A DNA stretch of 32,000 nt from Clostridiales bacterium (GCA_003534295.1 DPDV01000003.1:1580-33579), one strand, 5' to 3'. Counted from the first letter of the stretch, positions 7,312 to 29,864 are shown. Program-made: numbers and translations. The notes: generated from the letters alone by a model not told the origin.

Positions 7312-7344
7312 TATTTAGAAGTAACTTTTCACAATTTTTAAAAG

Positions 7345-7512: not shown

Positions 7513-7532
7513 CTGGAAGGATTGAAAAAGAA

Positions 7533-8870: not shown

Positions 8871-9047
8871 TTCATATATAAATAACTATATGGTTTTTTC
8901 AAAAATTTGTGTTTGATAAAATTGTGTTTGCAAAAAAAATTGCTTTCTCTTCCTACGGAAACAATGCATTAGATATTCACATATAATTGTTAATTGTTTG
9001 TATAAAACTTGTTAATATTAAACTTACTCACAAAATAATTTTCACAC

Positions 9048-9183
9048 TGTAGATAACTTTATTAGTTTTCCACGAAATTATTAACATTGTTTTTCTTAAG
9101 GAAATAAGATATGCACAGGGTTTTCCACATAATCCACATAACCTACTATTACTACTACTAAAAATATTAAATTATATTATAAT
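9048..9183. promoter_or_regulatory. oriC core between dnaA and dnaN: DnaA boxes, DnaA-trio-like repeats, AT-rich unwinding element
   Basis: Boxes are TGTAGATAA at 9048-9056, TTTTCCACG at 9066-9074, TTTTCCACA at 9121-9129 and TAATCCACA at 9130-9138. A 4-nt spacer follows, then CTA CTA TTA CTA CTA CTA at 9143-9160 (complement TAG/TAA trios). A pure A/T run follows at 9161-9183. Confidence 0.75.
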
Positions 9184-9198
9184 AAGGAGACGATAAAA

Positions 9199-11389: not shown

Positions 11390-13580
<2,191 letters not shown>

Positions 13581-13591
13581 TGGAGAATAAG

Positions 13592-13626
13592 AAATAGCAA
13601 GGAATATTACCTTGCTATTTCTTATC
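13592..13626 (+). terminator. Rho-independent terminator after gyrB
   Basis: 11-bp stem AAATAGCAAGG (13592-13602) / CCTTGCTATTT (13610-13620) with a 7-nt loop and a T-rich tail. Confidence 0.6.
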
Positions 13627-14097
13627 GATAAAGCTAGTATTAATCTTCAGCTAAAACTAATATACCTAACTTTTAACCTAATATACATTACTGCATAAAT
13701 AAGCTATTCACCAAATATATTAATCAGTTGCTCGACTATTAATGCACCAATAATAACCATATTCATCCACGAAGGGACTAAAAATGACCACTATAAAATA
13801 CAAGAATAATCTTAACTTCGAATATATTGCATATATTACAACCATATATTAAAAATATAAAAAAGTACAATATAGCTTACATACAAACAATATACTCTCG
13901 TCGCCGACTTATAATAATCTAAAGTTATTAAACCATTATAAATCTTTGCTCGAATAATATAAAACTCAAAAAATAAATCCCATATTACTCTTAGTTCAAC
14001 TAATATTAACCTTATGCTAATATTATGTCTAATTTAATTTTTTTTATACATAAAAATAAAATAAAATAAAATGTCGAAAAATGGAATACGAAAAACA

Positions 14098-14126
14098 TTG
14101 ACTAAAAGCACAAATTATTGTAATCT
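14098..14126 (+). promoter_or_regulatory. Candidate promoter of T4SS-like module 1: TTGACT-17-TAATCT
   Basis: TTGACT at 14098-14103 and TAATCT at 14121-14126. Preceded by phased (AAAAT)n A-tracts and a perfect TGTCGAA at 14072-14078. Confidence 0.35.
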
Positions 14127-14173
14127 AATTATAGTTAAAATTTATATTTTTAATTCTATAAAAAAGGAGGTTT

Positions 14174-14737
14174 ATGAAAAAAAATAATTCTATTCAAGAA
14201 TGGTTGCCTTTTGAAAGAATATTAAAAAATGGAATTATAAAATTAAAAAATAATTCTTATATAAAAATAATAAAAATATATCCAATTAATTTTAATTTAA
14301 AATCGGAATTGGAGAAAGAGGCAATTTTAAATTCATATAAAATATTTTTAAAAACATGCGATTTTAATTTTCAAATTTTAATTCAAAGTAAAAAAGAAGA
14401 TTTATCTAAACATATTTCCAATATAAATTGTCAAAAGGAAAAAGAAGAAAAAAGTATATCAGAGTATTCAAATAAATATATAGAATATATTCAATCATTA
14501 AATCATCAAAAAAAATCATCATCAAAAAATTTTTATATAATATTAAAGTATAAAAATGATGATAAAAAAATTAAAACAGTAGATGATTTGGCGATTGAAA
14601 ACTTAAATGATAAATATTTTAAGATAAAAGATTGCTTAAGCAGATGTGGAAATGGTGTTATAGATATAAATAATATTAATGATTCAAAAAATGTTTTATT
14701 TTCTTTTTTAAATTCCAGAATTTATTTAAATAATTAA
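14174..14737 (+). CDS. VirB4/TraE-family conjugation ATPase, N-terminal domain encoded as a separate ORF
   Basis: 187 aa. IQEWLPFERILKNGIIKLKNNSYIKIIKIYPINFNLKSELEKEAIL..FLK resembles, from memory, the N-termini of Gram-positive VirB4 proteins (Tn916 Orf16 / TcpF type). Strong AGGAGG SD. It lies directly upstream of the ATPase ORF. Confidence 0.55.
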   Translation: MKKNNSIQEWLPFERILKNGIIKLKNNSYIKIIKIYPINFNLKSELEKEAILNSYKIFLKTCDFNFQILIQSKKEDLSKHISNINCQKEKEEKSISEYSNKYIEYIQSLNHQKKSSSKNFYIILKYKNDDKKIKTVDDLAIENLNDKYFKIKDCLSRCGNGVIDINNINDSKNVLFSFLNSRIYLNN

Positions 14738-14801
14738 AAAATGAGGTGATGAAAATATTAATATAATAAATAAAATATTTAATAAAAATAAAAAAAATGA
14801 G

Positions 14802-16583
14802 ATGATTTTTTTACAAGGAACTTATGACGAAATTAAAGAAATAGCACCAACATATATTAATTTAAAAAATCCACAATATATAGAAATAGATGAGATGTAC
14901 TATTCTAGTATATTAATAACTAATTATTACAGGGAGCAAACAGATTTAATTTTAAAAACAATAATAGATACAAATATTAATCTAAACATATCTATTTTTT
15001 GTGAAAAACAAGATACATATAGAACAATAAAAGATTTGACTTATCATATAGGCAATGTAGGCGTAGATTTAAAAACAAATAATCAAAATAGGCAAGACAT
15101 AGATATTGCGGCATTTACGTATAATGACGCTAAATATATAAGAAAAGAACTACAAGTAAATAATGAGAGTTTATATTTTTTATATATTTATATAACAACA
15201 TTTTCTACAAATTTGAAGGAATTGGAGTATTTTATTAATAAATTAGAAGGACTTTTACAAAGTAAAGGATTGCAAACACGTAAAGCATATTTTAGGCAAG
15301 AGCAAGCTTTTTTGTCTGTTTTACCAATAATGGAAAATAATGAAGATTTAAAAAATGTATTAAAAAGGAATGTATTAACAGGAGGATTAATATCAACATA
15401 TCCATTTATTTCATCTGCAATTTTTGATGAAAATGGAATTTTTGTAGGAACTAATATTTATAACAATTCTTTAGTATTTGTGGATAGATATGATACAAAT
15501 AAATACAAAAATGCAAATATTTGCATTTTTGGAACTAGTGGAGCAGGTAAGTCGTTTTATACAAAATTATTAATTTTAAGATATAGATTATTAGGGATAG
15601 AACAATATATTATAGATCCAGATCGAGAATATGGTGAATTATGCAAAAATTTAAATGGCACATTAATAAAAATTGGACCAGGTTCTGATACTTTTATAAA
15701 TATATTTGATATAAGAGAAGATAGCTTAGAAGATGGAGAAACAGGATACTTAGCAAATAAAATTGGTAAACTAATAGGTTTTTTTAATTTGATTTTCGGA
15801 GATATAAATGAGGAAGAAAAAGCAATATTAGAAGAAAAACTAATAGAGTTGTATAAAAGAAAAGGTATAACATTTGATGATAATTCGTTACATAAAATTG
15901 AAAAAAATAAAATTAATATAAAACCAGATTTTAAAGACACATATGATATGCCATTACTTGAGGATTTGTGTAATTTACTTGATGAAGATGAAAAAACAAA
16001 AATATTAAAAATAAGGCTAATTCCATTTGTGAAAGGTTCATTAAGTTTCTTTAATAATTATACAAACCTCAATTTAAATAATAAATTAATTGTTGCAGAT
16101 ATTTACGAGATGGGAGAAGAAAATTTAAAATATGCAATGTATTTATTTGTTGATTATTTTTGGGATAGAATAAAAAAGGATAGAAATATAAAAAAGGCAA
16201 TTTATTTAGATGAAATTTGGAGATTAATAGGTGTAACATCAAATAAAGACGTTGCTAGTTTTATATATAAAATATTTAAAACAATAAGAAAATTTGGCGG
16301 AAGTAGTGTGGCAATAACTCAAGATATATCAGATTTATTTAGTTTGGAAGAAGGAATATATGGTAAAAGTATTTTAAATAATTCAGAAATAAAAACGTTT
16401 TTTGCACTAGAGGAAGAAAATATAATATTATTAAGTAAATATACTAATCTTTCTGAAAAGGAAAAAATAGAAATAAAATCTCTAAAAAGAGGAGAATGTT
16501 TGATGTTTGTTGGAAATGAACATATTTTGACTAAAATAGATGCAGCAGAATACGAAAAAAATATTATTGAAAAAGGATTGTGA
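14802..16583 (+). CDS. virB4: VirB4/TraE-family (AAA_10-type) T4SS ATPase, central and C-terminal part
   Basis: 593 aa. Walker A IFGTSGAGKSFYTKLL (15531-15554) followed by YIIDPDREYGELC..INIFDI. Walker B AIYLDEIWRL and ITQDISD. The first ATG has no SD. An extended SD (GAGGTGAT, 14743-14750) lies 51 nt upstream and the frame is open from 14745, so the true start may be non-ATG (for example ATT at 14757). Confidence 0.8.
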   Translation: MIFLQGTYDEIKEIAPTYINLKNPQYIEIDEMYYSSILITNYYREQTDLILKTIIDTNINLNISIFCEKQDTYRTIKDLTYHIGNVGVDLKTNNQNRQDIDIAAFTYNDAKYIRKELQVNNESLYFLYIYITTFSTNLKELEYFINKLEGLLQSKGLQTRKAYFRQEQAFLSVLPIMENNEDLKNVLKRNVLTGGLISTYPFISSAIFDENGIFVGTNIYNNSLVFVDRYDTNKYKNANICIFGTSGAGKSFYTKLLILRYRLLGIEQYIIDPDREYGELCKNLNGTLIKIGPGSDTFINIFDIREDSLEDGETGYLANKIGKLIGFFNLIFGDINEEEKAILEEKLIELYKRKGITFDDNSLHKIEKNKINIKPDFKDTYDMPLLEDLCNLLDEDEKTKILKIRLIPFVKGSLSFFNNYTNLNLNNKLIVADIYEMGEENLKYAMYLFVDYFWDRIKKDRNIKKAIYLDEIWRLIGVTSNKDVASFIYKIFKTIRKFGGSSVAITQDISDLFSLEEGIYGKSILNNSEIKTFFALEEENIILLSKYTNLSEKEKIEIKSLKRGECLMFVGNEHILTKIDAAEYEKNIIEKGL

Positions 16584-16589
16584 TAAAAA

Positions 16590-17858
16590 ATGAAAAAAAT
16601 AATTACCGCATTAGCAGAACCACAACTTAATAATGAACTAAAAAAGGAAAAGGATTTTATTGTCATTGGAAAAGATATTCAATATCAAGAAGGGGTAATA
16701 GAAATACTGGAAACTGAAAAAGAAGTGGACTTTTTAATAATAAGTGAAGCTTTACCAGGTAATGAAAAAATAGAAAATTTAATAGAAAAAATTAAGCAAA
16801 TAAATAATGAAGTAAATATAGTAATTATTTTAGAAAATAAAAAAGAAGAGTTAGAGAAAAATTTATATTCAAAAAATGTATATTTAATTTTATATAATAA
16901 AATAGAAATTAAAGAAATAATTAAATTAATAAAAAACAAAAAAGAAGACGAAAACGAAAAAATAAAAAAAGAAATAAATGATTTAAAGAAAATTATAATA
17001 GAACAAAATAGCAAAAATAAGCAAAATAAAAAACAAAAAATAAAAGAGGTAAAAGAATTAAATTCACAAAAAGAAATTATTTGTATTTTAGGTAGCGGCG
17101 GTGTAGGGAAAAGCATTTTCACAGTTAATTTAGCTAAATCATTAATTTATTCAAAGAAAAAAATATTAATAATAGATTTTGATATTTTAAATAATTCTCT
17201 TCATACAATTTTAGGTGTCAAAAAATATTCTGAAAAAATCTCCAAAAAAATAAAAGAAAATAATTTAATAAAAGATAAAATAGGTTTAAAAGAATTAAAA
17301 ATTAAAATAAATAAAAGAATTGATTTAATTTCAGGAATAAATTTATTATTCGATTCTAAATATAAAATTAATAATATTCAATTTAATAATTTATTTAATG
17401 ATGTTAAAAAATTTTATGATGTTATAATAATAGATACTTCTTCAGAATGTTTTTTTAATTATACAAAAGATATAATAAAAAAAAGTAATATAAATATTTT
17501 TATTGTTGAGCCAAATTTATTGGAAATACAGAAATCAAAAAATATTTTAAAAATATATAAAGAAGAATGGAATATAGATAATAATAAAATAAATATTTTA
17601 TTTAATAAGTTTAATAAAAATTCAATAGATATTAACATTTTAAAAATAATTTTTTCTGAATACAATATTATTGGAAAAATAGATATAAATAATAAATATA
17701 ATTTAATAATAAATAAAAATGCAAATAAAATAGATAAAAATATAAAAAAAGAGTATTTAAAAATTATAGAAAAATATTTAATGAACAGAAAAAAACAAAA
17801 TTTTATAAAAAAAATAAAAAATAAAATATTAGAAGTTAGGAGAAGTAAAAATGAATGA
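16590..17858 (+). CDS. ParA/MinD-superfamily ATPase with N-terminal receiver-like domain (TadZ/CpaE architecture)
   Basis: 422 aa. Residues ~1-115 look like a receiver fold (DFLIISEALPGNEKIENLIEKIK) with Ser/Glu where the phospho-Asp is expected. Then a K/N-rich linker. P-loop ILGSGGVGKS (17091-17114), IIDFD and Walker B YDVIIIDTSS. Confidence 0.7.
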   Translation: MKKIITALAEPQLNNELKKEKDFIVIGKDIQYQEGVIEILETEKEVDFLIISEALPGNEKIENLIEKIKQINNEVNIVIILENKKEELEKNLYSKNVYLILYNKIEIKEIIKLIKNKKEDENEKIKKEINDLKKIIIEQNSKNKQNKKQKIKEVKELNSQKEIICILGSGGVGKSIFTVNLAKSLIYSKKKILIIDFDILNNSLHTILGVKKYSEKISKKIKENNLIKDKIGLKELKIKINKRIDLISGINLLFDSKYKINNIQFNNLFNDVKKFYDVIIIDTSSECFFNYTKDIIKKSNINIFIVEPNLLEIQKSKNILKIYKEEWNIDNNKINILFNKFNKNSIDINILKIIFSEYNIIGKIDINNKYNLIINKNANKIDKNIKKEYLKIIEKYLMNRKKQNFIKKIKNKILEVRRSKNE

Positions 17859-18564
17859 TTTAGAAATAGGACAAAATATAGCAAATGTAAATAATTTAGA
17901 AAAAGAGCAAAATAAATTTTTAGAAACAACACTTGGAAAAACAATTAACACGGCAGTAAATATAGGATTAAGATGGGTACTACCAGATTTAATTGAAGAT
18001 GAAATAATTAATATAAAAGATAGTTTGGTTAAGGGAGGTTTAAAACAAGGAATTAATACAGCAATTAATTCTGCAATAAATTTAGGAAAAAGTGCGATGG
18101 GAATATTTACTGGAAACTTTGAAAATTTATCACAAGCGCAGGAGGCAATAAAAAGCGGAGGAATAATTGATAGTTTATCAAATGTTTTAGATTCAGTACT
18201 AAGCAAAGTAACCAAAAAAGGTTGGATAAAATATGGAACATCAACGCTTATAAGGCAAGGAAAAAATGTTATATTAGACAATATTTCTAAAAGTATTGAA
18301 AATAGCTTTACAAATCAAATAAATAATTTAGACAAATTAGTAAAATATGAAAACAACTGGAAAGCGTATTATAAAGACAAAAACCTAAATGGAATGGAAA
18401 AAGAATATAGAAAAATAAACGAGAAGTTAAAAGAATTAATGCCATTTGAAACAGCTTTAAAACAGGCAAGACAAATAGAAAATCTTCATAAAATAATAAA
18501 AAACAATGGAGGAGATTTTAATTTGACTCAAGAACAAATAGAATTAAGTAAAATGCTAGTTTAG
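17851..18564 (+). CDS. Hypothetical protein, last gene of module 1
   Basis: 237 aa. AGGAGAAG SD inside the end of the previous gene and an 8-nt overlap (ATGAATGA). Gly/Asn-rich amphipathic repeats (GINTAINSAINLGKSAMGI). No signal peptide or TM segment seen. Confidence 0.6.
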   Translation: MNDLEIGQNIANVNNLEKEQNKFLETTLGKTINTAVNIGLRWVLPDLIEDEIINIKDSLVKGGLKQGINTAINSAINLGKSAMGIFTGNFENLSQAQEAIKSGGIIDSLSNVLDSVLSKVTKKGWIKYGTSTLIRQGKNVILDNISKSIENSFTNQINNLDKLVKYENNWKAYYKDKNLNGMEKEYRKINEKLKELMPFETALKQARQIENLHKIIKNNGGDFNLTQEQIELSKMLV

Positions 18565-18598
18565 TTACTAGAAATAACAGTTTTTTCTGCGTTTTTCC

Positions 18599-18627
18599 TT
18601 GCATAATTTTTTTCAGTTTAGTATAAT
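18599..18627 (+). promoter_or_regulatory. Candidate gyrA promoter: TTGCAT-17-TATAAT
   Basis: TTGCAT at 18599-18604, 17-nt spacer and TATAAT at 18622-18627, 36 nt upstream of the gyrA ATG. Confidence 0.55.
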
Positions 18628-18663
18628 TATAAAAGACAAAAGGCAGAAAGGAATGGTAAAAAA

Positions 18664-21096
18664 ATGGAATCACGTGACGGAAAGATTATAGAAAGAGATA
18701 TAGAAACAGAGATGAAAACATCCTATATAGATTATGCAATGAGTGTTATTGTATCTCGTGCTTTACCAGATGTAAGAGATGGATTAAAACCTGTTCACAG
18801 AAGAATTTTATATGCAATGTATGAAGATGGAATTACTTCAGATAAACCATATAGAAAGTGCGCTAATACTGTAGGGTCAGTTTTAGGAAGATATCACCCA
18901 CATGGAGATGCTTCTGTTTATGATGCAATGGTAAGAATGGCACAGGATTTTTCATTGAGATATAGATTAATTGATGGACACGGAAACTTTGGTTCAATAG
19001 ATGGCGATGGTGCAGCTGCAATGAGGTATACAGAAGCAAGAATGGCTAAAATTGCAGAAACAATGCTTACAGACATAGAAAAAAATACAGTAGATTTTAT
19101 GCCAAACTATGATGATAGATTGCAGGAGCCAACTGTTCTTCCATCTAAAATACCCACACTATTAATTAATGGATCTTCGGGTATAGCAGTTGGAATGGCA
19201 ACAAACATACCTCCTCACAATTTAACAGAAGTAATAAATGGAATTATTAAAATAATTGATGAAGATAATGTTACAGATGAAGAGTTATTATCAATAATTA
19301 AGGGGCCAGATTTTCCTACGGAAGGCATAATAATAGGAAGAGAAGGAATAAAAGAGGCATATTTAACAGGTAGAGGAAAAATTACAGTACGAGCAGAGGC
19401 AGAAATAGAAGAAACAAGCAATAATAGACAAAGAATAATTGTTAATTCTTTGCCATATCAAGTAAATAAAGCAAAGTTAGTTGAAAATATTGCTTCATTG
19501 GTTAGAGAAAAAAGACTAGAGGGAATTTCAGATTTACGTGATGAATCAGATAGAATAGATAGAGTTAGAATAGTTATAGAATTAAAAAGAGATGCAAATG
19601 CCCAAGTAGTATTAAATCAACTATATAAAAACACACAAATGCAAGATACATTTGGAATAATAATGTTAGCATTGGTAAATGGAGAACCAAAGATACTAAC
19701 TTTAAGACAGTGTTTGGATTATTATATAGACCACAGAAAAACAGTTATATTGCGTAGAACACAGTTCGATTTAGACAAAGCATTAGCAAGAGCACACATA
19801 TTAGAAGGATTAAAAATAGCTTTAGATAATATAGACGAAGTAATTAATATTATAAGAAACTCATATGATGATGCAAAAGAAAGATTAATGAAAAGATTTG
19901 GATTATCTGATATACAAGCTCAAGCTATATTGGATATGAGATTAAAGACGCTATCAGGTTTGCAAAGAGAAAAAATAGACGAAGAATACAATGAGCTAAT
20001 GAAATTAATAGAATATTATAGAGAAGTATTAAGTAGTGAGCGACTAGTATTTGATATAATAAAAAAAGAATTAACAGAAATTAAAGAAAAATATGGAGAT
20101 GAAAGAAAGACAAAAATAGCAGCAGCCGAAGGCGAAATTGATGTAGAAGATTTAATTAAAGAAGAACAAAGCGTAATAACATTAACTCACTTTGGATACA
20201 TAAAAAGAATGCCTGTAGATACATATAAAAGCCAAAAAAGAGGAGGAAAAGGAATAACAGGTATAGCAACAAGGGAAGAAGATTTTGTAAAACAAATATT
20301 TACAGCATCCACACATGATATTATATTATTCTTTAGTAACAAAGGAAAATTATATAGATTGAAAGGATATGAAGTACCAGAAGCAGGAAGAACTGCTAAA
20401 GGTACAGCAATTGTTAATTTATTAAGCCTAGATCCAGGCGAAAAAATATCCGCAGTTATACCAATCAATAACTTCTCAGAAGGAAAATATTTATTGATGG
20501 GAACTAAAAATGGACTAATAAAAAAGACTGCACTTACAGAGTATAATTCAGCAAGAAAAACGGGATTATTAGCAATCACATTAAAAGATGATGATGAATT
20601 AATAGATGTAAGACTAACAGATGGCGAAGACAATGTTGTAATGGTAACCAAAAAAGGTATGAGCATTACATTTGACGAAAAAGATGTTAGACCAGTTGGA
20701 AGAACTGCGCAAGGAGTAATTGGAATTAGACTTGATGAAGATGATAGTGTAATAGGTATGGAATCTATTATTTCTAACATTAAAGGTACCCTTCTTGCCA
20801 TAACAGAAAATGGATTTGGAAAGAGAACAGAATTAGAAGAATATAGAGTACAAAATAGAGGGGGAAGAGGTGTAATAACTTATAAAGTAACACCTAAAAC
20901 TGGAGATATAGTTGGAATAAGAATAGCGACAGATGAAGAAGATGTTATGCTTATAACTGACAATGGCACTATAATTAGATTAAATGTTAAAGACATAAGT
21001 ATATTGGGTAGAGCAACGCAGGGAGTAACTTTAATGAGGACAAATGAAGGTAAGGTAGTAAGCATAGAAAAAATATCTTTGGAAGAAAGTGAATAA
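18664..21096 (+). CDS. gyrA: DNA gyrase subunit A
   Basis: 810 aa. [23 protein letters not shown]-type [19 protein letters not shown], active-site [10 protein letters not shown], and a C-terminal beta-pinwheel repeat region. Confidence 0.97.
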
Positions 21097-21097
21097 T

Positions 21098-21625
21098 ATG
21101 ATGAATTTTAAAAAAGATTCAGTAAACCCAATAATGCTTCTTATTGAAAACCTTGGCGAAATAAGTATTTTGGCTGACGAGGTAGTAGATAATCCAGACG
21201 TAATATCAGATAATCAGGAGAGAGAAATATTAACAGATATATATGGAAAATTTATGAAAGAAAATATGGAGATAATAATTGAAATAACTAAAAGCTCTGG
21301 GCAGGAAGAAGGATACAAAAATGTGGAAGAAATTTCAAAGTTTTTTTATAAAAGATTGAATAAGCTTAAAACAGATGCTGTAGTAAAAAGACAAGAAAAA
21401 AGTATAGTAGCAATACTGAGTCAGAGACTACCAAATGGACTAAAGCAACAAAAACTTATGGAATTAGCAGAAGAAATAATGCAAAAAAACGGAGGTAAAA
21501 AAGGTGCAAGAATCAACGATGTAGGATATCTAAGGAAACGTATTTTATTCACTGCAATGGATAAAGGATTTGTTCCTCCTCACGGTACAGAAGAAGTTGG
21601 TGATACAGGAGATGAAGAAAGATAA
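21098..21625 (+). CDS. Hypothetical acidic protein packed against the gyrA stop
   Basis: ATG 2 nt after the gyrA TAA, with GGAAGAAAG 8 nt upstream (the track start is a GTG at 21089 inside gyrA). ~175 aa, no recognisable motifs, acidic C-terminus GTEEVGDTGDEER. Confidence 0.55.
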   Translation: MMNFKKDSVNPIMLLIENLGEISILADEVVDNPDVISDNQEREILTDIYGKFMKENMEIIIEITKSSGQEEGYKNVEEISKFFYKRLNKLKTDAVVKRQEKSIVAILSQRLPNGLKQQKLMELAEEIMQKNGGKKGARINDVGYLRKRILFTAMDKGFVPPHGTEEVGDTGDEER

Positions 21626-21631
21626 CAATAT

Positions 21632-21669
21632 AAAAAATCTGTGATTAATTGATTAATCACAGATTTTTT
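21632..21669. terminator. Bidirectional intrinsic terminator between convergent genes
   Basis: Perfect 18-bp inverted repeat AAAAAATCTGTGATTAAT (21632-21649) / ATTAATCACAGATTTTTT (21652-21669) with A-run and T-run flanks. The right arm encodes the last codons of the dnaI-like gene. Confidence 0.75.
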
Positions 21670-22654
21670 TAAATCTTATATCTTCTCCGAAAAAATAGCA
21701 AATATTGTAATCTCCAATTATTCTAGAAACTATTCTTTCATCATAAGTATTATATAAGTTTTGTAAACTTAAATTTGTAGAAATTATTGTTTTAGTTATA
21801 TTTTTTTGATTTAACAACCTTGTATTAATTATATTAAATAATTCAGTGAATTTCATGTTATTAACACATTCTGTGCCTAAATCATCAATTATTAATAAAT
21901 CTACATTTAATATACTTTCTAAAATATTAGAATTATTAGATTTGCCAAATCTGTAGTCAATTATTGTATCTAACATTACAGGAGCTGTTTGATATAAAAC
22001 GGTTTTTCTTTGCTTAATTAATTCATTTGCTATACAACTAGAAAGGAAAGTTTTGCCTAAGCCAGTATTGCCAGTAAATAACAAGTTTTTTTCCTCTGCT
22101 TTTTCAAAGTTATTGATAAAACTAAAACATATATCTTTTATTAATTTTATATTTTCTCTAGGAGAAACGTCTGAGTGATATTTTGACTCATCTATTTTAT
22201 CAGAATAAAATAGTTCATTAAAATTCTGAAAGTTTTGATTCTTTATGTTATAAATATTTGATTTATTATATTCCAAATCAAATATTTTTTGTTTTAGACA
22301 ATTGCACATTATAGAATTAGAGCCTTCTACAATATATCCGGTATCTTTACATATATTACACTCAAATTTAGGTAAAAAGTAAGATTCATTTATTCCGAGA
22401 GAATTTAAAACCTGTTTTTTCTTATTTTTTAAAACATTAATTTTTTCTTGAAATTTTTCTAAAAGAGTGGGATCATTTTTATTTATAAGAGATTTTGCAG
22501 TTGAAATAGCTAGAAAATTTAATTCGTCATCTATCTTTTGCAAATCTGGGTATTGCAAATATAATTCTTTTTTTCTTATATCAGCCATTTGAATTGCATT
22601 AATTCTTTTATTTTCATATTCTGTTAAAAGTTTTTTTAGAGTAGAATTATTCAT
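21653..22654 (-). CDS. dnaI: DnaI/DnaC-family AAA+ helicase loader
   Basis: 333 aa. Cys cluster CNICKDTGYI..MCNC (zinc-binding N-domain as in DnaI). Walker A FTGNTGLGKTFLSSCIANEL and Walker B DLLIIDDLGTE. Confidence 0.75.
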   Translation of the reverse strand: MNNSTLKKLLTEYENKRINAIQMADIRKKELYLQYPDLQKIDDELNFLAISTAKSLINKNDPTLLEKFQEKINVLKNKKKQVLNSLGINESYFLPKFECNICKDTGYIVEGSNSIMCNCLKQKIFDLEYNKSNIYNIKNQNFQNFNELFYSDKIDESKYHSDVSPRENIKLIKDICFSFINNFEKAEEKNLLFTGNTGLGKTFLSSCIANELIKQRKTVLYQTAPVMLDTIIDYRFGKSNNSNILESILNVDLLIIDDLGTECVNNMKFTELFNIINTRLLNQKNITKTIISTNLSLQNLYNTYDERIVSRIIGDYNICYFFGEDIRFKKICD

Positions 22655-22666
22655 TTTTTCACATCC

Positions 22667-23647
22667 TTATGCTTCTTGTTTTTTTTTAACATTTGCGTAT
22701 AAATTGTTTAAATTATCATAAGTTCTTTGTTCATATTTGTTATATCCAGAAGATTTTTCTAAATTCTGTACATTCTTATTTTTCTGTTTCATTTCCAATA
22801 AAAATTTTTGGATTTCGTCAGAATTGGTAAATCCTCTGTCATGCCAATCACTTAATAATTTATCTAAATAGTCAAAATTTGGATTGGCTTTAGATGTAGT
22901 ACGTTTTAATGCAATTTCAATTATATCTAGGTTATATTTAAAGTCAATTACCCACTTTTCGATGTAAGCGTACTCGTACTGAGATAAGTTTCTTTTTAAA
23001 CCTAATTTCTTTAAAATATTATTAGCAATTATATTTAATTTTTCTTGTTTTTCATAATAAATATCTAAATCTGTAAAAGTTTTGATATTATTTTTAGCCC
23101 ATGCAGCAGCAACTGTTTGGATATAATTTCTGTGTAATGCAGATTTATCAAAGCAGTAACCAAATAATGCAATCATAACTTCTTCATCAAAATTGTATTT
23201 TTTGAACCATAATTCAATATCTGGATACCATGAAGTAGGCATTAACCCAGAAAAATACTTATTATTAATATATTCTATAGCTTGAGCTCTTTTTTGACCT
23301 TCTGCAGATTTTTTTAGTTCTTCAGCAGATAAAGATGTTTTAGGTTTATATATTTTATATAACTCAATTTCTTGTAAATTATTAATAATATATCCTGTAT
23401 TTTTTTTAGTAATTACGCCAATATCTTCCCAATACTTTAAGGCATCCTGTATAACCTTTAGAGGAAGTACTAATTTTTTTGATAAATCATTTAGTTTTAC
23501 GTCTTTATCATATTTAGACAAAAATAATAAATACAAATATACTTTTATAAAATCACCATTTGCTTGTGATAAGTATTCTGAGAAAAAAATATCTGGTATT
23601 TCTGTTTTTGAAAACAAAGGTAATATTTCTGTATTTTCTAATTTCAT
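22667..23647 (-). CDS. DnaD-domain replication protein (Firmicute DnaB/DnaD co-loader type)
   Basis: Start chosen at MKLENTEILP (ATG at 23647, GGGGAGG 9 nt upstream; the track start at 23665 is a TTG). Two DnaD-like C-terminal repeats (YIQTVAAAWAKNNIKT.. and NFDYLDKLLSDWHDRGFTN). Followed 12 nt later by the DnaI-like gene, like the Bacillus dnaB-dnaI pair. Confidence 0.7.
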   Translation of the reverse strand: MKLENTEILPLFSKTEIPDIFFSEYLSQANGDFIKVYLYLLFLSKYDKDVKLNDLSKKLVLPLKVIQDALKYWEDIGVITKKNTGYIINNLQEIELYKIYKPKTSLSAEELKKSAEGQKRAQAIEYINNKYFSGLMPTSWYPDIELWFKKYNFDEEVMIALFGYCFDKSALHRNYIQTVAAAWAKNNIKTFTDLDIYYEKQEKLNIIANNILKKLGLKRNLSQYEYAYIEKWVIDFKYNLDIIEIALKRTTSKANPNFDYLDKLLSDWHDRGFTNSDEIQKFLLEMKQKNKNVQNLEKSSGYNKYEQRTYDNLNNLYANVKKKQEA

Positions 23648-23679
23648 AGCATAATGCCTCCCCAAAGTTTATTTGTCAA

Positions 23680-23708
23680 ATTATATCATTTTCTGAATAT
23701 TTTTACAA
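23680..23708 (-). promoter_or_regulatory. Candidate strong promoter for the dnaD-like/dnaI-like pair: TTGTAA-17-TATAAT, spacer ending in an extended -10 TGa
   Basis: On the minus strand, TTGTAA is at 23708-23703 and TGATATAAT at 23688-23680 (perfect extended -10). Confidence 0.55.
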
Positions 23709-23757
23709 TAAATCTTTTGGGAAAACACAGTTTATATGAAAAAAATTATAATAAATG

Positions 23758-24036
23758 TTATTTATACAAATAAAGTTTGTTTTTTAGTAAATATTTAAGA
23801 AAATATTTGAGAAAATACACAATATTTTCATTATTTACACCAATAAAAGTGAACAAGAGCAATGGGAAACATAATATGATAATTGCACTTATTTTTATAT
23901 ATAGACTGTTAAAAAAACAATTTGATATAAAAAATATTATACAGGCCCATATTAAATTTAGTATTAGAGAGCTGTAAGATATAAAACCAAATAATTTATT
24001 GTCAAAATTGTAATTTTGAGGAAAAATAAAATTCAT
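23758..24036 (-). CDS. Small two-TM membrane protein, VirB3/TcpE/PrgI-like by size, topology and position
   Basis: 92 aa. F..NYNFDNKLFGFISYSSLILNLIW.. gives two hydrophobic helices, then a basic tail YFLKYLLKNKLYLYK. The start overlaps the upstream stop (TAATG). AGGAGG SD. Confidence 0.4.
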   Translation of the reverse strand: MNFIFPQNYNFDNKLFGFISYSSLILNLIWACIIFFISNCFFNSLYIKISAIIILCFPLLLFTFIGVNNENIVYFLKYFLKYLLKNKLYLYK

Positions 24037-24917
24037 TAAGACCTCCTATTAAATAAATTTGGTGATATGCCAAAATTATTTGACACATCTGTAGAAATTC
24101 CGCCGATTAATTGCCTTATATATGAATTAATATGTACTAAAGCGTATATACATCCTAGGTAAGTTAATTTTGACATAGTATTAGAATTGAAACTAATTGA
24201 AAAAACTAGTAATAGTATTAGAGCAATAAATGATTGCATTATTAATAGTGAAAAAATACATCTAATCCATGATTTGAAAAACCAACTTATTGAATTGTTT
24301 AATAATGTCAATAGTGCAAATGGAGTTAGTAGGCAAAAGAGTTTTATCATAATATACCTTAGAGAGTAAGAAAAAATTAAATTAAAAAGGCTGATAGTTA
24401 TAAATGTTTTGGAAATTCCATCAAAGGAAAAAATATTAAAGTCAGAAGTTATAGAATATATATCAACATTTAATTTTTCAATAAGTTTTGAAAAAGAAAT
24501 AGAAAAACCAAATATGGACTGTCCAAGCTCTTGTATAGAAGAAGAAAGCAAATGATTAATATTTAGAATCTGCTCACAAATAAAAAATGAAGAATTGATA
24601 CTAATACCCAAAATAAGCAGTCTAAAAACAAAGTGATGAGGTGATTCTACAGGCTGACTAGTATAATTTGAATAAGCAAGTTTGACTGCATAATATATAA
24701 CAAAAGCAATTAATAGAGAGTTTGCAATTAATAACAAACCATTAGTTGAAGAAGTACCAAATATTTTTTCAAAAAATGATATTTTTAATATATTTGTATC
24801 TATAAAAGCCAATTCATCTAATATTTCATAAAGGGTTGTATCAATGGAAGACAATAGATTGTTTAACAAATTGTTTATAGTTTCAAAAATTATATAAGAA
24901 ATATTTTGTTGCTCCAT
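24036..24917 (-). CDS. Polytopic membrane protein, VirB6/TrbL-like
   Basis: ~293 aa from MEQQNISY (AGGTGA 6 nt upstream; the track GTG start is at 24926). At least 5 hydrophobic segments. SLRYIMIKLFCLLTPFALL resembles the R-Y..P-hydrophobic-A motif I recall from TrbL/VirB6-type proteins. Confidence 0.45.
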   Translation of the reverse strand: MEQQNISYIIFETINNLLNNLLSSIDTTLYEILDELAFIDTNILKISFFEKIFGTSSTNGLLLIANSLLIAFVIYYAVKLAYSNYTSQPVESPHHFVFRLLILGISINSSFFICEQILNINHLLSSSIQELGQSIFGFSISFSKLIEKLNVDIYSITSDFNIFSFDGISKTFITISLFNLIFSYSLRYIMIKLFCLLTPFALLTLLNNSISWFFKSWIRCIFSLLIMQSFIALILLLVFSISFNSNTMSKLTYLGCIYALVHINSYIRQLIGGISTDVSNNFGISPNLFNRRS

Positions 24918-24926
24918 AAATATCAC

Positions 24927-25262
24927 CTATACTATAAGTGTTTTTATGGCGGATAATATTAAGTCAATTGCTAAAATAAATCCATAAGAAAAAAGTGAGC
25001 TTCTAATTAGCTTTTTGGCTATCCTTATTCTTTCTTCATCACCAAAACTAAATTTTTTCATAAATACACCTGTTCCAACGGCAACAGCGGCAGCCGGTGT
25101 AGCAAGCTTTAAAAGCCATTCTTCTATTTTAGTAAAAGCATCATTTAATTTAGTAACTATCTTTGGTGTAGAATCAAAAAAACAATAAGAAATGTTAAAA
25201 ATATTAAATAATAAAATAAAAAATAGTAAAATAATAATAATTTTTTTAGTAAAAGTTTTCAT
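24927..25262 (-). CDS. Small secreted or membrane protein, TrbC/VirB2-pilin-like topology
   Basis: 111 aa. N-terminal signal-like helix, then two hydrophobic helices (ATPAAAVAVGTGVFM and SLFSYGFILAIDLILSAI) separated by a short charged loop. Strong AAGGAGGA SD. Overlaps the end of the coupling-protein gene by 17 nt. Confidence 0.4.
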   Translation of the reverse strand: MKTFTKKIIIILLFFILLFNIFNISYCFFDSTPKIVTKLNDAFTKIEEWLLKLATPAAAVAVGTGVFMKKFSFGDEERIRIAKKLIRSSLFSYGFILAIDLILSAIKTLIV

Positions 25263-26991
25263 GAAAATCCTCCTTATATAAAAAATATGGTATTAATTTT
25301 AATTTTTGGGGTGGTATAATTTTGGAACCATCTGATAAAAAGCCTAGGGCAGTAAAGTTTTCCAATTCTTGAGTAAAAAATTTTGTGTCATAGATAAAAT
25401 CTGTTTGAATAGATGTACTAATGGTTTCCGAAATGTTAGAATTTTTAGAATTCAACGAATTAGTTAAATAACTAAATACTGTTTTTTGTGCATTTTCAGA
25501 AATTGAATGAGAAGATTTTTCTTTATCCTCTTTACCAATTTGCTTTTGTATATCTTCTATTGTAAAAATGTCGTCAGATCTAAACCATAATTTATTTATT
25601 AAATTTTGAGTAATCATTTTTACAGTAGCTTGATTATTAATGGTATTAAGAAGAGATGTATAGCTTTGTGTTGCCAGAATGTTAATGCATTTTGCTTCCC
25701 TACTTTGAGAAAAAAAGTTGCTGTCTGTTTCCGTACAGTATTCATGATATTCGTCAGAAATAAATGCAACACTTCTATTAGAAATTTGAAAATTATTTGC
25801 TAGCCTCATCATGACTTCTGATTGGAAATCTAATTTTAAATATGCTGATATTATTTTAGACAAAATTGCATATTCACTGATATTCATATTTAAAACAACT
25901 ATTTTTCCATTTTCCAAAACATCTTGAAAACCTAAAAAATTAAGTTCCTCTAATGGTGGAGAAAAGGTTTTTAAAATATCATACTCTCCAATAAAACTAT
26001 TAGTAATGCGTGTTATTTCTGATTTTATAATAGATAAAGTACGAGGGTCTAAATTTAGAAATTCTTTTTCAAAAAAGGTTATGGAAGAAAGTAAATCATA
26101 GGTTTCGGTATGATTATAATAATTATTATTAAATTTTTCTCTTAAAATTTTTAACTTATCCAGATAATAATCATTAACCATAATTATTTTATGTAGTTCA
26201 TCAAAAGTTACATAACCATCATTATAAAGCCTGCATAATTTTATAGCTTCTGCTAAAACCTGCTCAGCTTTGTCTAACCAAAAAGATTCTGTATTATTTT
26301 TAGAAAACAGCAAAAGAATCGTTTTTAATCTATTTGCTAAGACAGAAGGCTTTAAGTTTGGCTTGTGTAAAGGGTTATATTTGTAAATTCCATTTAGTTC
26401 AATTGTAATTAAATCCTCTTCTCTATTATATATTTTGCAAAATTTTTTAACCTGTTTATAGTAATTACCTTTAACGTCTAAAATAAGCATTCCAATCTTT
26501 TTTTCGAAATTATTGGACTTATATTTAATTAGTTGTTGTGTAAAAGGATACATTGCGCTACTTGTTTTTCCAGTACCTATCGTTCCAGTTACTAAAATGT
26601 TTTGGTAAAGACTTTTTTCAGGTAAAAATATTTTCTCATCTGTAAAAATATTTTTTCCTATAAAAAGAGAGAGTTCGTTGGAATTAACAGAGGATATATG
26701 TTTGGGATGCTTAATCTTTTTAGAAAAAGTTTTTATAAATGGACGGATAAATAATGAAAAAAATGAACTAGAAAGAATAATGGATGAAAAAATATATGAG
26801 ATTACAAATAAAATTTTTATGTATTTCCAAATCAAAGGTTGTTCTATACAAATGTCGAATGGATGTAACCCGTATTCAATAATAATTGTAGATGATGTAA
26901 AAATAGGATAGAAGATTTTTAGACCAAACAAACAGGAAATAGAAGATAAAAATAAAACGAAAATAAAGTGTGCAATAAAAATCACCTCCAT
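25246..26991 (-). CDS. virD4: VirD4/TraG/TrwB-family type IV coupling protein
   Basis: 581 aa. N-terminal TM helices. Walker A VTGTIGTGKTSSAMYPF (about 26563-26592), LILDVKGNY, Walker B AFISDEYHEY and ILATQSYTSL. The start is uncertain (see findings). Confidence 0.7.
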   Translation of the reverse strand: MEVIFIAHFIFVLFLSSISCLFGLKIFYPIFTSSTIIIEYGLHPFDICIEQPLIWKYIKILFVISYIFSSIILSSSFFSLFIRPFIKTFSKKIKHPKHISSVNSNELSLFIGKNIFTDEKIFLPEKSLYQNILVTGTIGTGKTSSAMYPFTQQLIKYKSNNFEKKIGMLILDVKGNYYKQVKKFCKIYNREEDLITIELNGIYKYNPLHKPNLKPSVLANRLKTILLLFSKNNTESFWLDKAEQVLAEAIKLCRLYNDGYVTFDELHKIIMVNDYYLDKLKILREKFNNNYYNHTETYDLLSSITFFEKEFLNLDPRTLSIIKSEITRITNSFIGEYDILKTFSPPLEELNFLGFQDVLENGKIVVLNMNISEYAILSKIISAYLKLDFQSEVMMRLANNFQISNRSVAFISDEYHEYCTETDSNFFSQSREAKCINILATQSYTSLLNTINNQATVKMITQNLINKLWFRSDDIFTIEDIQKQIGKEDKEKSSHSISENAQKTVFSYLTNSLNSKNSNISETISTSIQTDFIYDTKFFTQELENFTALGFLSDGSKIIPPQKLKLIPYFLYKEDFHENFY

Positions 26992-26997
26992 TATTTG

Positions 26998-27026
26998 ATT
27001 TTAATATTTAATTTAGAACCTTGCAA
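26998..27026 (-). promoter_or_regulatory. Candidate promoter TTGCAA-17-TAAAAT placing the transcript start at or next to the coupling-protein ATG (leaderless)
   Basis: On the minus strand, TTGCAA is at 27026-27021 and TAAAAT at 27003-26998. Six nt separate the -10 from the A of the ATG at 26991. Confidence 0.35.
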
Positions 27027-27153
27027 ATTGTGGGAAACATTAATGTCGAAGAAATTGTAAATTGAGTAAAAAACAATAAAAAGATTAAAAATAAAGATAA
27101 TAAAAAAATAGTCTATTAATTTTAAAATATAATATCACCTCCCAGTTTTTACC

Positions 27154-27182
27154 ATAATACAACATTTTTGAAAATTTGTCTA
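27154..27182 (-). promoter_or_regulatory. Alternative upstream promoter for module 2: TAGACA-17-TATTAT
   Basis: On the minus strand, TAGACA is at 27182-27177 and TATTAT at 27159-27154. It would give a ~155-nt leader that begins with an orphan GGGAGGTGAT. Confidence 0.3.
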
Positions 27183-27203
27183 TACTTTTTGTAAAAAATT
27201 GTA

Positions 27204-27232
27204 TTGATATTTGTTTTTCTTTTTGCTATACT
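27204..27232 (+). promoter_or_regulatory. Candidate promoter of the LCP gene: TTGATA-17-TATACT
   Basis: TTGATA at 27204-27209 and TATACT at 27227-27232. Divergent from the module 2 promoters. Confidence 0.45.
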
Positions 27233-27262
27233 TAATAAATAGAATCAGAACAAAAAGAAAGA

Positions 27263-28558
27263 GTGATAAATTTGAAGGAAAAAAACACAAAAGAAATAAA
27301 CGAAATAAAATTTAAAAAGAAAAAAAAGGGAATTGGTAAGAAGATTTTACTTATTATAATATTTATATTACTAGCGATTGGAGTGATTTTTGGTTATAAG
27401 GTTTATAAAAATGGAGGAGGAACAAAAGGACTATTGATGACTGCTATAGGGCATGATAAAGATACGGTTTTATCATTAGACAAAATGTATTGCCTAATTT
27501 TAGGAAAAAGTCAAAATTTGACAGATACTTTAATATTAGCTTCATATGACCCGAAAGATCAATCAGCTGCTATGTTGTCAATACCAAGAGATACATTTAT
27601 AGGGGATTATAAGTCAAGTGCAACCGCCTGGGATAAAATAAATTCTGTATATCAAACAGAAAATGGACCACAAAAGGTAATGAAATATGTGAGTAATCTT
27701 ACGGGAATAGATGTTAAATATTATCTAATGGTTGATACAGAAGCATTAAAGGTTTTAGTAGATGAAATAGACGGCGTAACTTTTAATGTCCCAATTGATA
27801 TGAATTATGATGATTCAAGCCAGGACTTACATATACATTTAGAGGCAGGTGAACAACTATTAGATGGCGATAAAGCAGAACAGGTTGTTAGATTTAGACA
27901 TAATAATAATGGTAGTACATACCCAAGTGAGTATGGACAAGAAGATATAGGAAGAATGAAGACACAAAGAGCATTTTTAACAGCTTTAGCAAAAAAAATG
28001 TTAAGTTGGAAAAGTGTAACAAAAATAAATGGTATATTAGACATTGCACAAAAATATGTAGAAACAAACTTGGATTTTAATGCAATAAAAGATTATATAC
28101 CATATGCAGTGGAATTTGATATAAACAATTTGAAAACAGCAGCTTTACCAGGAGTACCAGAGTATGCAAATGTTGTATGGATATATAGTAGTGATAAAGA
28201 GGAGACAAAGAAAGTAGTAAATAAGCTATTTTTCAATATAGATGAGGAAAATTCTCAGATTAGCAGTGAAGAAAGAAGTAATATAAAAATAGAAGTATTA
28301 AATGGAACAGGCGATAAAGATGAATTTGAAAAAATTATAGATAGAATAGAAACTGCAGGATACAAAGTAAAAAATACAGGAGAGACCTCAAAAACAACTA
28401 GGACAACAATAATAAATAGAAATTCAATATCTGAAACTGCAATATCAGAGATAAAAAATGCTATTAAAATAGGAAATATATCAACAGGAAATTATTCAGA
28501 AAATATAGATATAACTATCATTTTAGGTAAAGATAGTATAGAGAAGTTAGAAGATTAA
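27263..28558 (+). CDS. LytR-CpsA-Psr (LCP) family cell-envelope phosphotransferase
   Basis: 431 aa. N-terminal TM anchor. LCP core TDTLILASYDPKDQSAAMLSIPRDT..VDTEALKVLVDEIDGV. The C-terminal domain looks LytR_C-like. The GTG start is uncertain. Confidence 0.8.
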   Translation: MINLKEKNTKEINEIKFKKKKKGIGKKILLIIIFILLAIGVIFGYKVYKNGGGTKGLLMTAIGHDKDTVLSLDKMYCLILGKSQNLTDTLILASYDPKDQSAAMLSIPRDTFIGDYKSSATAWDKINSVYQTENGPQKVMKYVSNLTGIDVKYYLMVDTEALKVLVDEIDGVTFNVPIDMNYDDSSQDLHIHLEAGEQLLDGDKAEQVVRFRHNNNGSTYPSEYGQEDIGRMKTQRAFLTALAKKMLSWKSVTKINGILDIAQKYVETNLDFNAIKDYIPYAVEFDINNLKTAALPGVPEYANVVWIYSSDKEETKKVVNKLFFNIDEENSQISSEERSNIKIEVLNGTGDKDEFEKIIDRIETAGYKVKNTGETSKTTRTTIINRNSISETAISEIKNAIKIGNISTGNYSENIDITIILGKDSIEKLED

Positions 28559-28572
28559 GCTTCTAACTTCTC
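28541..28572. terminator. Perfect 13-bp palindrome spanning both stop codons of the convergent LCP and carboxypeptidase genes
   Basis: GAGAAGTTAGAAG (28541-28553) / CTTCTAACTTCTC (28560-28572) with a 6-nt loop. There is no U-tract on either side, so its function as a terminator is uncertain. Confidence 0.4.
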
Positions 28573-29786: not shown

Positions 29787-29864
29787 ATAAACTCCTCTAA
29801 TATAACTATATATTAAGTGTTTGAAAAATTCAATACTAAAATTAAACAAAAAGGAATGATTTAA

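Follow-up and report, generated by a model that had tools for sequence, protein, structure and literature searches.

The DNA considered here is a stretch of 32,000 nucleotides from a Clostridiales bacterium (GCA_003534295.1 DPDV01000003.1:1580-33579), referred to below as the window, with positions counted from its first nucleotide. It is the replication-origin region of a bacterium of about 26% G+C and carries, interleaved with gyrase and helicase-loader genes, eight genes in two modules. Their assignment to a Gram-positive-type (MPF-FATA) type IV secretion system (T4SS) holds on the evidence given with each gene, where HMM stands for hidden Markov model:

14174-14737, plus strand (module 1): VirB4 N-terminal domain as a separate protein (TrsD/TraC-like), 187 amino acids; NCBIfam, Pfam, orthologue HMM.
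14802-16583, plus strand (module 1): VirB4 ATPase, the C-terminal two-thirds of a full VirB4, 593 amino acids; CD1110 family, P-loop_TraG, AAA_10, PDB 4AG5.
16590-17858, plus strand (module 1): TadZ/CpaE-like P-loop ATPase, 422 amino acids, with a 160-residue N-terminal extension; Pfam, orthologue HMM.
17851-18564, plus strand (module 1): p237, a conserved soluble protein predicted to be all-helical, 237 amino acids; homologue clusters, AlphaFold.
23758-24036, minus strand (module 2): VirB3/PrgI-like two-helix membrane protein, 92 amino acids; PrgI PF12666, orthologue HMM.
24036-24926, minus strand (module 2): VirB6-like polytopic membrane protein, 296 amino acids; TrbL/VirB6 PF04610.
24927-25262, minus strand (module 2): VirB2-like T4SS pilin, 111 amino acids; PF18895, TrbC/VirB2.
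25246-26991, minus strand (module 2): type IV coupling protein (T4CP; VirD4/TraG family) with N-terminal membrane helices, 581 amino acids; Pfam, motifs, HMM.

The VirB4 of module 1 is divided between two open reading frames (ORFs) that jointly cover the VirB4 profile. The 187-residue protein matches NCBIfam VirB4 models at profile positions 2-130, TrsD NF041427 weakly and, in precomputed Pfam assignments, PF26593 (TraC-like), and the HMM of its orthologues matches the N-domain of 124 unsplit VirB4 proteins. The 593-residue protein scores 284 bits with the CD1110 family, E 7e-21 with P-loop_TraG and E 1e-45 with the VirB4 of PDB 4AG5; its second-best NCBIfam model is the Mbov_0397 ATPase of a mycoplasma integrative and conjugative element (ICE; 245 bits), and its Walker A motif, GTSGAGKS, is identical in 79 of 80 orthologues. 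The N-domain is a separate ORF in 50 or more species, and since the two-ORF form is kept across them (median 190 and 589 amino acids) it is an ancestral split and not a frameshift. The 64-nucleotide gap between the two ORFs (14738-14801, plus strand) holds a Shine-Dalgarno sequence and a mini-ORF of five codons (ATGAAAATATTAATATAA); in two of the related loci (numbered with the prefix L), L091 and L097, the ORFs overlap by about 13 nucleotides, without a gap.

The 422-residue protein has a ParA/MinD fold, with CbiA, AAA_31 and ParA matches in Pfam over residues 161-369. Its Walker A is the classical GxxGxGKS form (G[TSN]xG[VIA]GKS), and the signature lysine of the ParA/MinD 'KGG' motif is absent in every orthologue. 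The orthologue HMM matches TadZ-type genes that adjoin T2SSE/T2SSF or RcpC genes in the distantly related loci L092, L093, L095 and L096 (E 1e-67 to 6e-33). The last protein of the module, p237, has no match in Pfam, NCBIfam or the PDB sequences, no predicted membrane segment and no signal peptide, and PADLOC and PHROGs gave nothing useful for the family-less proteins. It has 3605 homologue clusters, and its homologues close the VirB4-TadZ(-TadA-TadB) clusters of L091, L092, L094 and L095 (E 1e-55 to 8e-13). With a deep alignment over four lineages AlphaFold predicts ten helices at a mean local confidence (pLDDT) of 89.6 and a predicted template-modelling score (pTM) of 0.80, whereas a shallow alignment gave a useless model (pLDDT 50); a Foldseek search of the better model against the PDB and BFVD found no match (best E 0.3, TM score <0.35). 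p237 may be an adaptor, a structural part or a substrate.

Module 2 is headed by the coupling protein, for which TrwB_AAD_bind (40.7 bits) and TraG-D_C (25.6 bits) both exceed the Pfam cut-offs, and which has two to three N-terminal hydrophobic segments, a Walker A motif (GTIGTGKT) and a DE Walker B. Its closest comparisons by HMM include the T4CP of L091 (E 6e-179) and that of L093 (E 5e-136), a locus that is a true conjugative element. The pilin has a signal-like helix and a C-terminal hydrophobic segment; among its orthologues PF18895 (T4SS_pilin) is matched in 35 of 35 (best E 1.7e-6) and TrbC/VirB2 in 9 of 35, and the L093 element has a homologue (E 3e-15). The 296-residue protein, with at least four hydrophobic segments, found nothing in a profile search of PDB sequences; eight of its 37 orthologues match TrbL/VirB6 PF04610 (best E 1.4e-4), and homologues lie in L091 (E 7e-49), L096 (E 4e-26) and L093 (E 6e-16). 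For the 92-residue protein PrgI PF12666 is matched weakly in 4 of 34 orthologues, and their HMM matches both the gene that immediately precedes VirB4 in L093 and L096 and the N-terminal 100 or so residues of 22 VirB3-VirB4 fusions (E 1e-8 to 2e-4), one cluster of which is named 'PrgI family protein' by NCBI. Between a promoter-like site and the T4CP start (26992-27135, minus strand) a strong Shine-Dalgarno sequence (GGGAGGTGA) precedes an open frame of roughly 45 codons that would encode a hydrophobic peptide, has no ATG, GTG or TTG start, and ends on a stop codon overlapping the T4CP start (TAATG). The frame may represent a leader or else a small membrane protein whose start codon is non-canonical.

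A preliminary description of this DNA had proposed a VirB4 in two ORFs (14174-16583), a TadZ/CpaE-type ATPase, a 237-residue protein without a family, a VirD4/TraG coupling protein and three membrane proteins resembling VirB2, VirB6 and VirB3, and the matches given above bear these proposals out. It had also taken the genes to be intact and not decaying, which agrees with the conservation data that follow.

Conservation was followed through a scan of one genome per species, which gave 340 VirB4 relatives, with synteny taken from the best 80 loci (71-91% identity). All of these best 80 of the 340 loci, as far as their contigs reach, retain the interleaved order gyrB, VirB4 N-domain, VirB4 ATPase, TadZ-like, p237 and gyrA, followed on the minus strand by dnaI, dnaD, VirB3-like, VirB6-like, pilin and T4CP genes. 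In these relatives the set consists of core chromosomal genes and is not annotated as a conjugation module. The exact VirB4 protein occurs in 3326 metagenome blocks, with the same context in all six places shown. Median identity to the window is 86% for GyrB and GyrA and 76.5% for VirB4 (C-terminal part), which is better conserved than DnaA (69%) or RecF (67%); the pilin stands at 72%, DnaD-like at 71%, T4CP at 69%, the VirB4 N-domain at 65%, DnaI-like at 63%, p237 at 57%, VirB6-like at 54% and VirB3-like at 52%. The TadZ-like ATPase (50%) is the fastest-evolving of the set, apart from a 178-residue ORF beside gyrA that is described below (p178).

All eight genes are intact, and the Walker motifs are both intact and conserved. 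The ratio of nonsynonymous to synonymous substitution (dN/dS), taken against the closest species, is 0.045-0.28 for the eight genes, compared with 0.03-0.14 for housekeeping genes: 0.045 for VirB6-like, 0.054 for VirB4, 0.07 for both pilin and T4CP, a value within 0.045-0.08 for VirB3-like, 0.15 for p237, 0.22 for the VirB4 N-domain and 0.28 for the TadZ-like ATPase. The set is inherited vertically, the pairwise divergence of its proteins following that of GyrB, GyrA and DnaN with Pearson r of 0.69-0.88 (0.80-0.94 for the controls dnaA, recF, dnaD and dnaI). Selfish hitch-hiking was considered as the cause of retention and rejected, since selection acts on the protein sequences. An ordinary ICE lying near oriC by chance, or two decaying fragments of one, is hardly credible against such a record: the low G+C of module 1 (16-24%, below that of the neighbouring genes) and an ancestry in conjugative elements speak for it, and set against it are intact genes, dN/dS well below 1, a position among core genes that is the same in about 80 species and in lineages whose VirB4 is only 50% identical, and the lack of an integrase, relaxase or att site in the regions searched.

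Those regions comprise the ORFs of at least 60 amino acids in the window and 10 kb beyond either end, that is 52 kb of a chromosome of about 1.4 Mb. The preliminary description had found no relaxase, recombinase, wall hydrolase, VirB8-like scaffold, adhesin or insertion repeats in the 32 kb, and this was confirmed and, for the genes named, extended into the flanks. There is no relaxase or recombinase among the window ORFs or in the flanks except one strain-variable insertion sequence (IS) transposase in the latter; neither window nor flanks contain a lytic transglycosylase or a CHAP, M23 or NTF2-like protein, with the limit that a divergent VirB8-like protein could escape a sequence search; a surface adhesin is lacking in both as well; and there are no att-like repeats, the repeats of the region being AT-rich low-complexity sequence only. 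Of the parts that mark MPF-FATA systems, the VirB4 ATPase, the coupling protein and the VirB3/PrgI-like and VirB6-like proteins are found, and the VirB1-type hydrolase and VirB8-like scaffold are not; of those that mark conjugative elements, neither a relaxase in the searched regions nor an integrase or recombinase, att repeats or variable presence was seen. The flanks hold soj/parA, parB, acetyltransferases, NUDIX and other genes, and a stretch devoid of genes, probably an rRNA operon.

In other species, insertions concentrate in the gaps between gyrB and the VirB4 N-domain, p237 and gyrA, and gyrA and dnaI. They lie at:

L020:2321-8693
L032:5424-8420
L057:14215-16887
L014:16723-19894
L037:6625-8601
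L046:2617-4038

The inserted genes include an AbiEii toxin, an AAA_15/AAA_21 ATPase, Fic-HTH, M78 and M14 peptidases, a MurT-like ligase, a surface protein with Listeria-Bacteroides repeats, and a VWA protein with a tip-pilin-like Ig protein; they are defence, toxin-antitoxin or surface genes, and never a relaxase or integrase.

These absences bear on a still-working conjugation system, in which a relaxase and oriT elsewhere in the chromosome or on mobilisable elements would be served by the T4SS in trans, in the manner of high-frequency-recombination (Hfr) strains or helper elements. In its favor, the coupling protein is kept, stands at the head of the module 2 operon and closely resembles its counterpart in an element with a relaxase (E 5e-136); many conjugative systems have their T4CP and relaxase at a great distance from virB4 (PMC12102498), and the inspection covered the 52 kb named above only. 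Conservation in about 80 species with core-gene-like dN/dS is unexpected in a helper of selfish elements, and none of the roughly 90 chromosomal loci examined, variable insertions included, has a relaxase, the sole one being that of the L093 element. On balance helper conjugation is unlikely.

The window places both modules among the replication genes of the chromosome. From gidB, mnmG, mnmE, jag, yidC, yidD and rnpA on the minus strand the order passes to dnaA, dnaN, recF, remB and gyrB on the plus strand, the GC skew changes sign at about 7 kb, and DnaA-box clusters occur at 7345-7651 and 9048-9138. The neighbouring features are:

7027-9199, no strand assigned: oriC region with dnaA; GC-skew sign change at about 7 kb, DnaA-box clusters.
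11652-13580, plus strand: gyrB, conserved left neighbour of module 1; Pfam, and synteny in the loci reaching it, also in L091 and L097.
18664-21096, plus strand: gyrA, conserved right neighbour of module 1; Pfam, synteny, and a promoter-like sequence of its own (TTGCAT-17-TATAAT).
21653-23665, minus strand: dnaI-like and dnaD/DnaB_2-domain helicase-loader genes, directly downstream of module 2 and co-oriented with it; Pfam, PHROG DnaC-like and DnaD-like loaders.

With oriC placed at about 7.0-7.5 kb and 8.9-9.2 kb, the distance from it to the start of module 1 is 5-7 kb; the proximity to the origin proposed earlier stands, and the figure of about 5 kb becomes this range. The mechanically called dnaA ORF (7437-8870, plus strand) has a TTG start and 477 amino acids, while gene calls in metagenomes give 445; since two perfect DnaA boxes (7492-7512) fall inside the extended ORF, the shorter start is more likely, and the boxes belong to oriC. 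Consensus scans for promoters and terminators gave chance-level results, and an Rfam search found tRNA only. Read by eye, gyrA and dnaD have apparent -35/-10 motifs of their own; placing these two genes in the T4SS operons was considered and is not claimed, as both have good promoter-like motifs. The region upstream of module 1 is unconserved between species, and for this reason no regulatory element or oriT is claimed there.

Two further observations concern the neighbours. The ORF of p178 (21089-21625, plus strand, 178 amino acids) overlaps the gyrA stop codon by 8 nucleotides, matches no family and is fast-evolving (dN/dS 0.57 against L007). Only the closest species have a detectable counterpart; in most others just a short gap separates gyrA from dnaI. 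The genes that come next after the T4CP promoter region (27263-30458) encode an LCP-family (LytR-CpsA-Psr) protein, a PBP5-type D-Ala-D-Ala carboxypeptidase and ComEA.

The exact proteins of the window are present in thousands of gut metagenome assemblies (contigs up to 1.40 Mb). Metagenome-assembled genomes (MAGs) with related loci come from human, rabbit, chicken, mouse and ruminant guts and are labelled 'uncultured Clostridia bacterium', 'Clostridium sp. CAG:567' or 'CAG:575'; one circular genome measures 1.57 Mb. Names of the CAG type suggest the GTDB order TANB77; a literature search for the CAG-567 and CAG-575 taxa found nothing, and membership of the present clade is suspected only, as a guess. 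A conserved Tad cluster has been described in this uncultured order (PMC11680825), and the papers on TANB77 describe that cluster and not a T4SS.

A search of 1.84 billion cluster representatives returned 6832 VirB4 relatives, and the loci of those nearest to, but outside, the clade of the window are arranged as follows:

L096 (VirB4 53% identical, 40% G+C): VirB6, one other gene, VirB3, TrsD, VirB4, TadZ-like, one other gene, ParA-like, T2SSE, two polytopic and two small pilin-like proteins, in one string.
L091 (VirB4 50%): dnaA, dnaN, recF, gyrB, two inserted genes, TrsD-like, VirB4, a shortened ParA-like protein, an 83-residue ORF, a p237 homologue, gyrA.
L092 (VirB4 49%): VirB4, TadZ-like, T2SSE ATPase, polytopic membrane protein, p237 homologue, then gyrA.
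L093 (VirB4 46%, unsplit, 849 amino acids): relaxase of 1121 amino acids, MobC, VirB3, VirB4, pilin, T4CP, M23 peptidase, VirB6, ParA; adjoins a Tad locus.
L097 (VirB4 45%): gyrB, a few genes, TrsD-like, VirB4, TadZ-like.
L094, L095 and L098 (VirB4 31-36%; 22% G+C in L094 and L095): TrsD-like, VirB4, TadZ-like, T2SSE, T2SSF-like and a last gene of about 240-250 amino acids, at a conserved chromosomal site.

The kit thus lies beside gyrB or gyrA also in lineages whose VirB4 is only 45-50% identical (L091, L092, L097), and in L091 the T4CP, pilin, VirB6, VirB3 and dnaD genes follow gyrA as an inverted block of unchanged internal order. VirB4 is followed by TadZ-like and p237-like genes in L092, L094, L095 and L098 and by a TadZ-like gene alone in L096 and L097; the last gene of L094 and L095 is a p237 homologue, and the L098 locus lies within 10 kb of gidB-parA-parB. 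A rough neighbour-joining tree, indicative only as it carries no support values, groups all split VirB4s apart from the element-type proteins of 800-1100 amino acids. Among PLSDB plasmids no VirB4 comes closer than 37% identity.

Several of these loci belong to a wider chromosomal family of low-GC gut bacteria, in which a split VirB4 (TrsD-like plus an ATPase of about 590 amino acids) is followed by TadZ-like, T2SSE (TadA/CpaF-like) and T2SSF-like genes. No description of such VirB4/Tad-pilus hybrid loci was found in the literature. They are:

L094:9654-15728
L095:2277-8776
L098:9466-15758
L092:10001-16119
L096:262-12744

Most of them end on a gene of about 230-250 amino acids; L092, L094 and L095 have a homologue of p237 here and L096 has none. 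Upstream, on the opposite strand, L094, L095 and L098 carry three small genes that may encode pilins.

From these gene arrangements we infer that a conjugative element resembling L093 gave rise to the T4SS components, its genes for DNA processing, wall lysis and integration presumably having been lost from the locus, and that the trio of VirB4, TadZ-like ATPase and p237 is probably an old unit shared with the hybrid loci. The hybrid loci also suggest a pilus or adhesion organelle only, in which a VirB2-type pilus together with a Tad pilus would attach or aggregate cells with no translocation. The pilin belongs to the best-conserved small components of the set, and in L094, L095 and L098 VirB4 stands in a Tad-pilus operon with neither T4CP nor VirB6 in view. 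What makes this improbable for the window is its conserved T4CP: we know of no role of a coupling protein in pilus formation alone, and in model systems VirB4 is enough to build a pilus.

Among characterized machines the Gram-positive conjugation systems are comparable in parts. The Trs system of pGO1/pSK41, the Prg system of pCF10 and the CD1110-type conjugative transposon (CTn) of C. difficile share with the window a VirB4 (that of the window is best matched by the CD1110 family), a PrgI-like VirB3, a VirB6-like protein and a T4CP, and the TrsD plus TrsE-like split of pGO1 resembles that of the window. A PrgF/VirB2-like pilin is likewise common to Gram-positive MPF-FATA systems and the window; as VirB2-like pilins are reported in almost all Gram-positive conjugative plasmids (bioRxiv 10.64898/2025.12.18.695078), the pilin is not novel in itself. 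Unlike these systems, the window set is not on a plasmid or ICE and has no relaxase, accessory DNA transfer and replication (Dtr) proteins, VirB1-type hydrolase, VirB8-like protein or adhesin at the locus. Mycoplasma ICEs resemble it in the VirB4, which is near the Mbov_0397 model, and in a minimal recognisable set of TraE/VirB4 and TraG/VirD4; they are mobile, use a DDE recombinase and vary between strains, whereas the window set is fixed and core. With the Tad/Flp pilus the window shares the TadZ-like ATPase, and in its relatives TadZ, a T2SSE ATPase and membrane proteins of T2SSF type come after VirB4; the window itself has the TadZ-like gene only, without TadA, TadB/C or Flp pilin, while L092, L094, L095, L096 and L098 have T2SSE and T2SSF-like genes.

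One of the two nearest parallels, with the archaeal Ced and Ted systems, is the chromosomal T4SS of Patescibacteria, the candidate phyla radiation (CPR) (Quinonero-Coronel et al., 2025; PMC12102498), which is lineage-wide, is reported to be essential for epibiotic growth in a cultivated Saccharibacterium (PMC12102498; PMC12857230) and was called unique among monoderm bacteria in a T4SS review of December 2025 (PMC12857230). Measured against the published description (PMC12102498), the window shows the same components and position: MPF-FATA ancestry, separate TrsD-like and VirB4 proteins, VirB3/PrgI, VirB6 and a VirB2-like pilin, no relaxase nearby, and a lineage-wide chromosomal location near dnaA, dnaN, rnpA and rpmH in an uncultured host of small genome. 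It differs in its host, which is a member of the Clostridia and not of the CPR; in a single pilin gene instead of arrays; in a T4CP that lies in the operon and is strongly conserved, where that of CPR is often distant and was not essential; and in the attached TadZ-like ATPase and p237 and the interleaving with gyrB, gyrA and dnaD-dnaI. By this comparison the T4SS and a Tad pilus might form an organ of dependence on other bacteria, an obligate cell-cell conduit as in epibiotic Patescibacteria, a reading we hold to be doubtful.

Archaeal Ced and Ted (Beltran et al., 2023; PMC9905601) are domesticated sets of VirB2, VirB6 and VirB4 homologues that import DNA and were described without a T4CP homologue. 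Like the window set they are carried on the chromosome and lack a relaxase; in Ted a ParA/VirC1-like ATPase adjoins the genes, comparable to the TadZ-like one here, and both work with a separate type IV pilus (Ups). The host domain is different, and no sequence relation is detectable beyond family level. A machine for DNA import or competence, a bacterial counterpart of Ced/Ted or of Helicobacter ComB, would fit these shared features (PMC9905601), the possible need of a small genome for outside DNA, and comEA, which in the window lies 3 kb away. The absence of a coupling protein from the description of Ced/Ted (PMC9905601) contrasts with a T4CP under strong purifying selection here (dN/dS 0.07). 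Import of this kind appears a long shot. We know of no coupling-protein homologue in ComB either.

The reading we favor, at a probability of roughly 0.6, is that of one vertically inherited, host-owned and domesticated MPF-FATA T4SS fixed next to oriC in an uncultured clade of gut Clostridia (genomes of about 1.4-1.6 Mb, about 26% G+C). A domesticated chromosomal apparatus had been one of three possibilities raised by the preliminary description, and it is sustained by the synteny over about 80 species, purifying selection, co-divergence with gyrase and clean flanks; the further idea that it exports origin-proximal DNA is neither borne out nor contradicted. Of the other two, a new minimal T4SS subtype survives as a variant and not as a new class, since the system derives from MPF-FATA, with relatives that include the L093 element and a parallel in Patescibacteria (PMC12102498), and two fragments of an old ICE are right as to ancestry and wrong as to decay. 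The evidence supports as novel an apparently relaxase-less domesticated set in Firmicutes, its TadZ-like partner, the orphan protein, and the position among replication genes.

In the working proposed for the domesticated T4SS, VirB3, VirB6 and the two-piece VirB4 (N and C) would form the membrane translocon, VirB4 would extract the VirB2-like pilin from the membrane to build a short pilus or conduit through the wall, and the coupling protein would recruit a cytoplasmic substrate. The TadZ-like ATPase and p237, which presumably come from an older VirB4/Tad-pilus hybrid locus, would probably serve to place the machine in the cell or to link it with a Tad pilus whose genes lie elsewhere. In model systems the localisation of Tad machines is brought about by TadZ. 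The role envisaged is contact-dependent export of macromolecules to neighbouring cells for the benefit of the host, and not self-transfer of a mobile element; retention and strong selection of the T4CP point to export rather than import. As to the substrate, protein is the usual reading of relaxase-less T4SSs. In mycoplasmas chromosomal DNA moves between small-genome cells, and to our knowledge neither this transfer nor mycoplasma ICEs have a canonical relaxase. By that analogy we lean slightly towards relaxase-independent DNA exchange over protein delivery, which the data do not separate. That linkage with gyrB, gyrA and dnaD-dnaI is deep and recurs hints at DNA; stability and high gene dosage of the origin region, proposed for Patescibacteria (PMC12102498), would explain it just as well. 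In a reading related to that of the obligate conduit, and likewise doubtful, the set would be the first host-owned bacterial apparatus for relaxase-free chromosomal DNA exchange, a bacterial Ced/Ted.

Several points weigh against the domesticated T4SS as outlined. Function, direction and substrate are drawn by analogy only, and the VirB6 and VirB3 assignments come from weak though consistent profile matches. Against L007 dS is near saturation for the small module 2 genes, as it is in all but the closest comparison, and those dN/dS values are rough. In one of six metagenome assemblies of the same species (L004:13050-13762) a 1-bp deletion frameshifts p237 after codon 156; this may be an assembly error or a natural loss, and if real p237 is dispensable in some strains. 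A relaxase or oriT beyond the 52 kb inspected would mean a dispersed but conventional conjugation system, and with no VirB1-like hydrolase or VirB8-like scaffold found the channel may be incomplete.

A kit comparable to that of Patescibacteria belongs to the core genes near the origin in a clade of Clostridia prevalent in human and animal guts, with small genomes and no cultured member. The domestication of conjugation machines by small-genome bacteria would be a recurring event and not a single oddity. The analysis also brings to light VirB4/Tad-pilus hybrid loci, undescribed as far as the literature search found, and two candidate new parts of such machines, an apparently obligate TadZ-like partner and an orphan protein with a confidently predicted fold. 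The set offers a concrete target for co-culture, secretome and DNA-transfer work in a clade that may belong to an order linked to immunotherapy response. If the obligate-conduit reading were true, this would be the first Firmicutes lineage with such a lifestyle, which would explain its resistance to culture.

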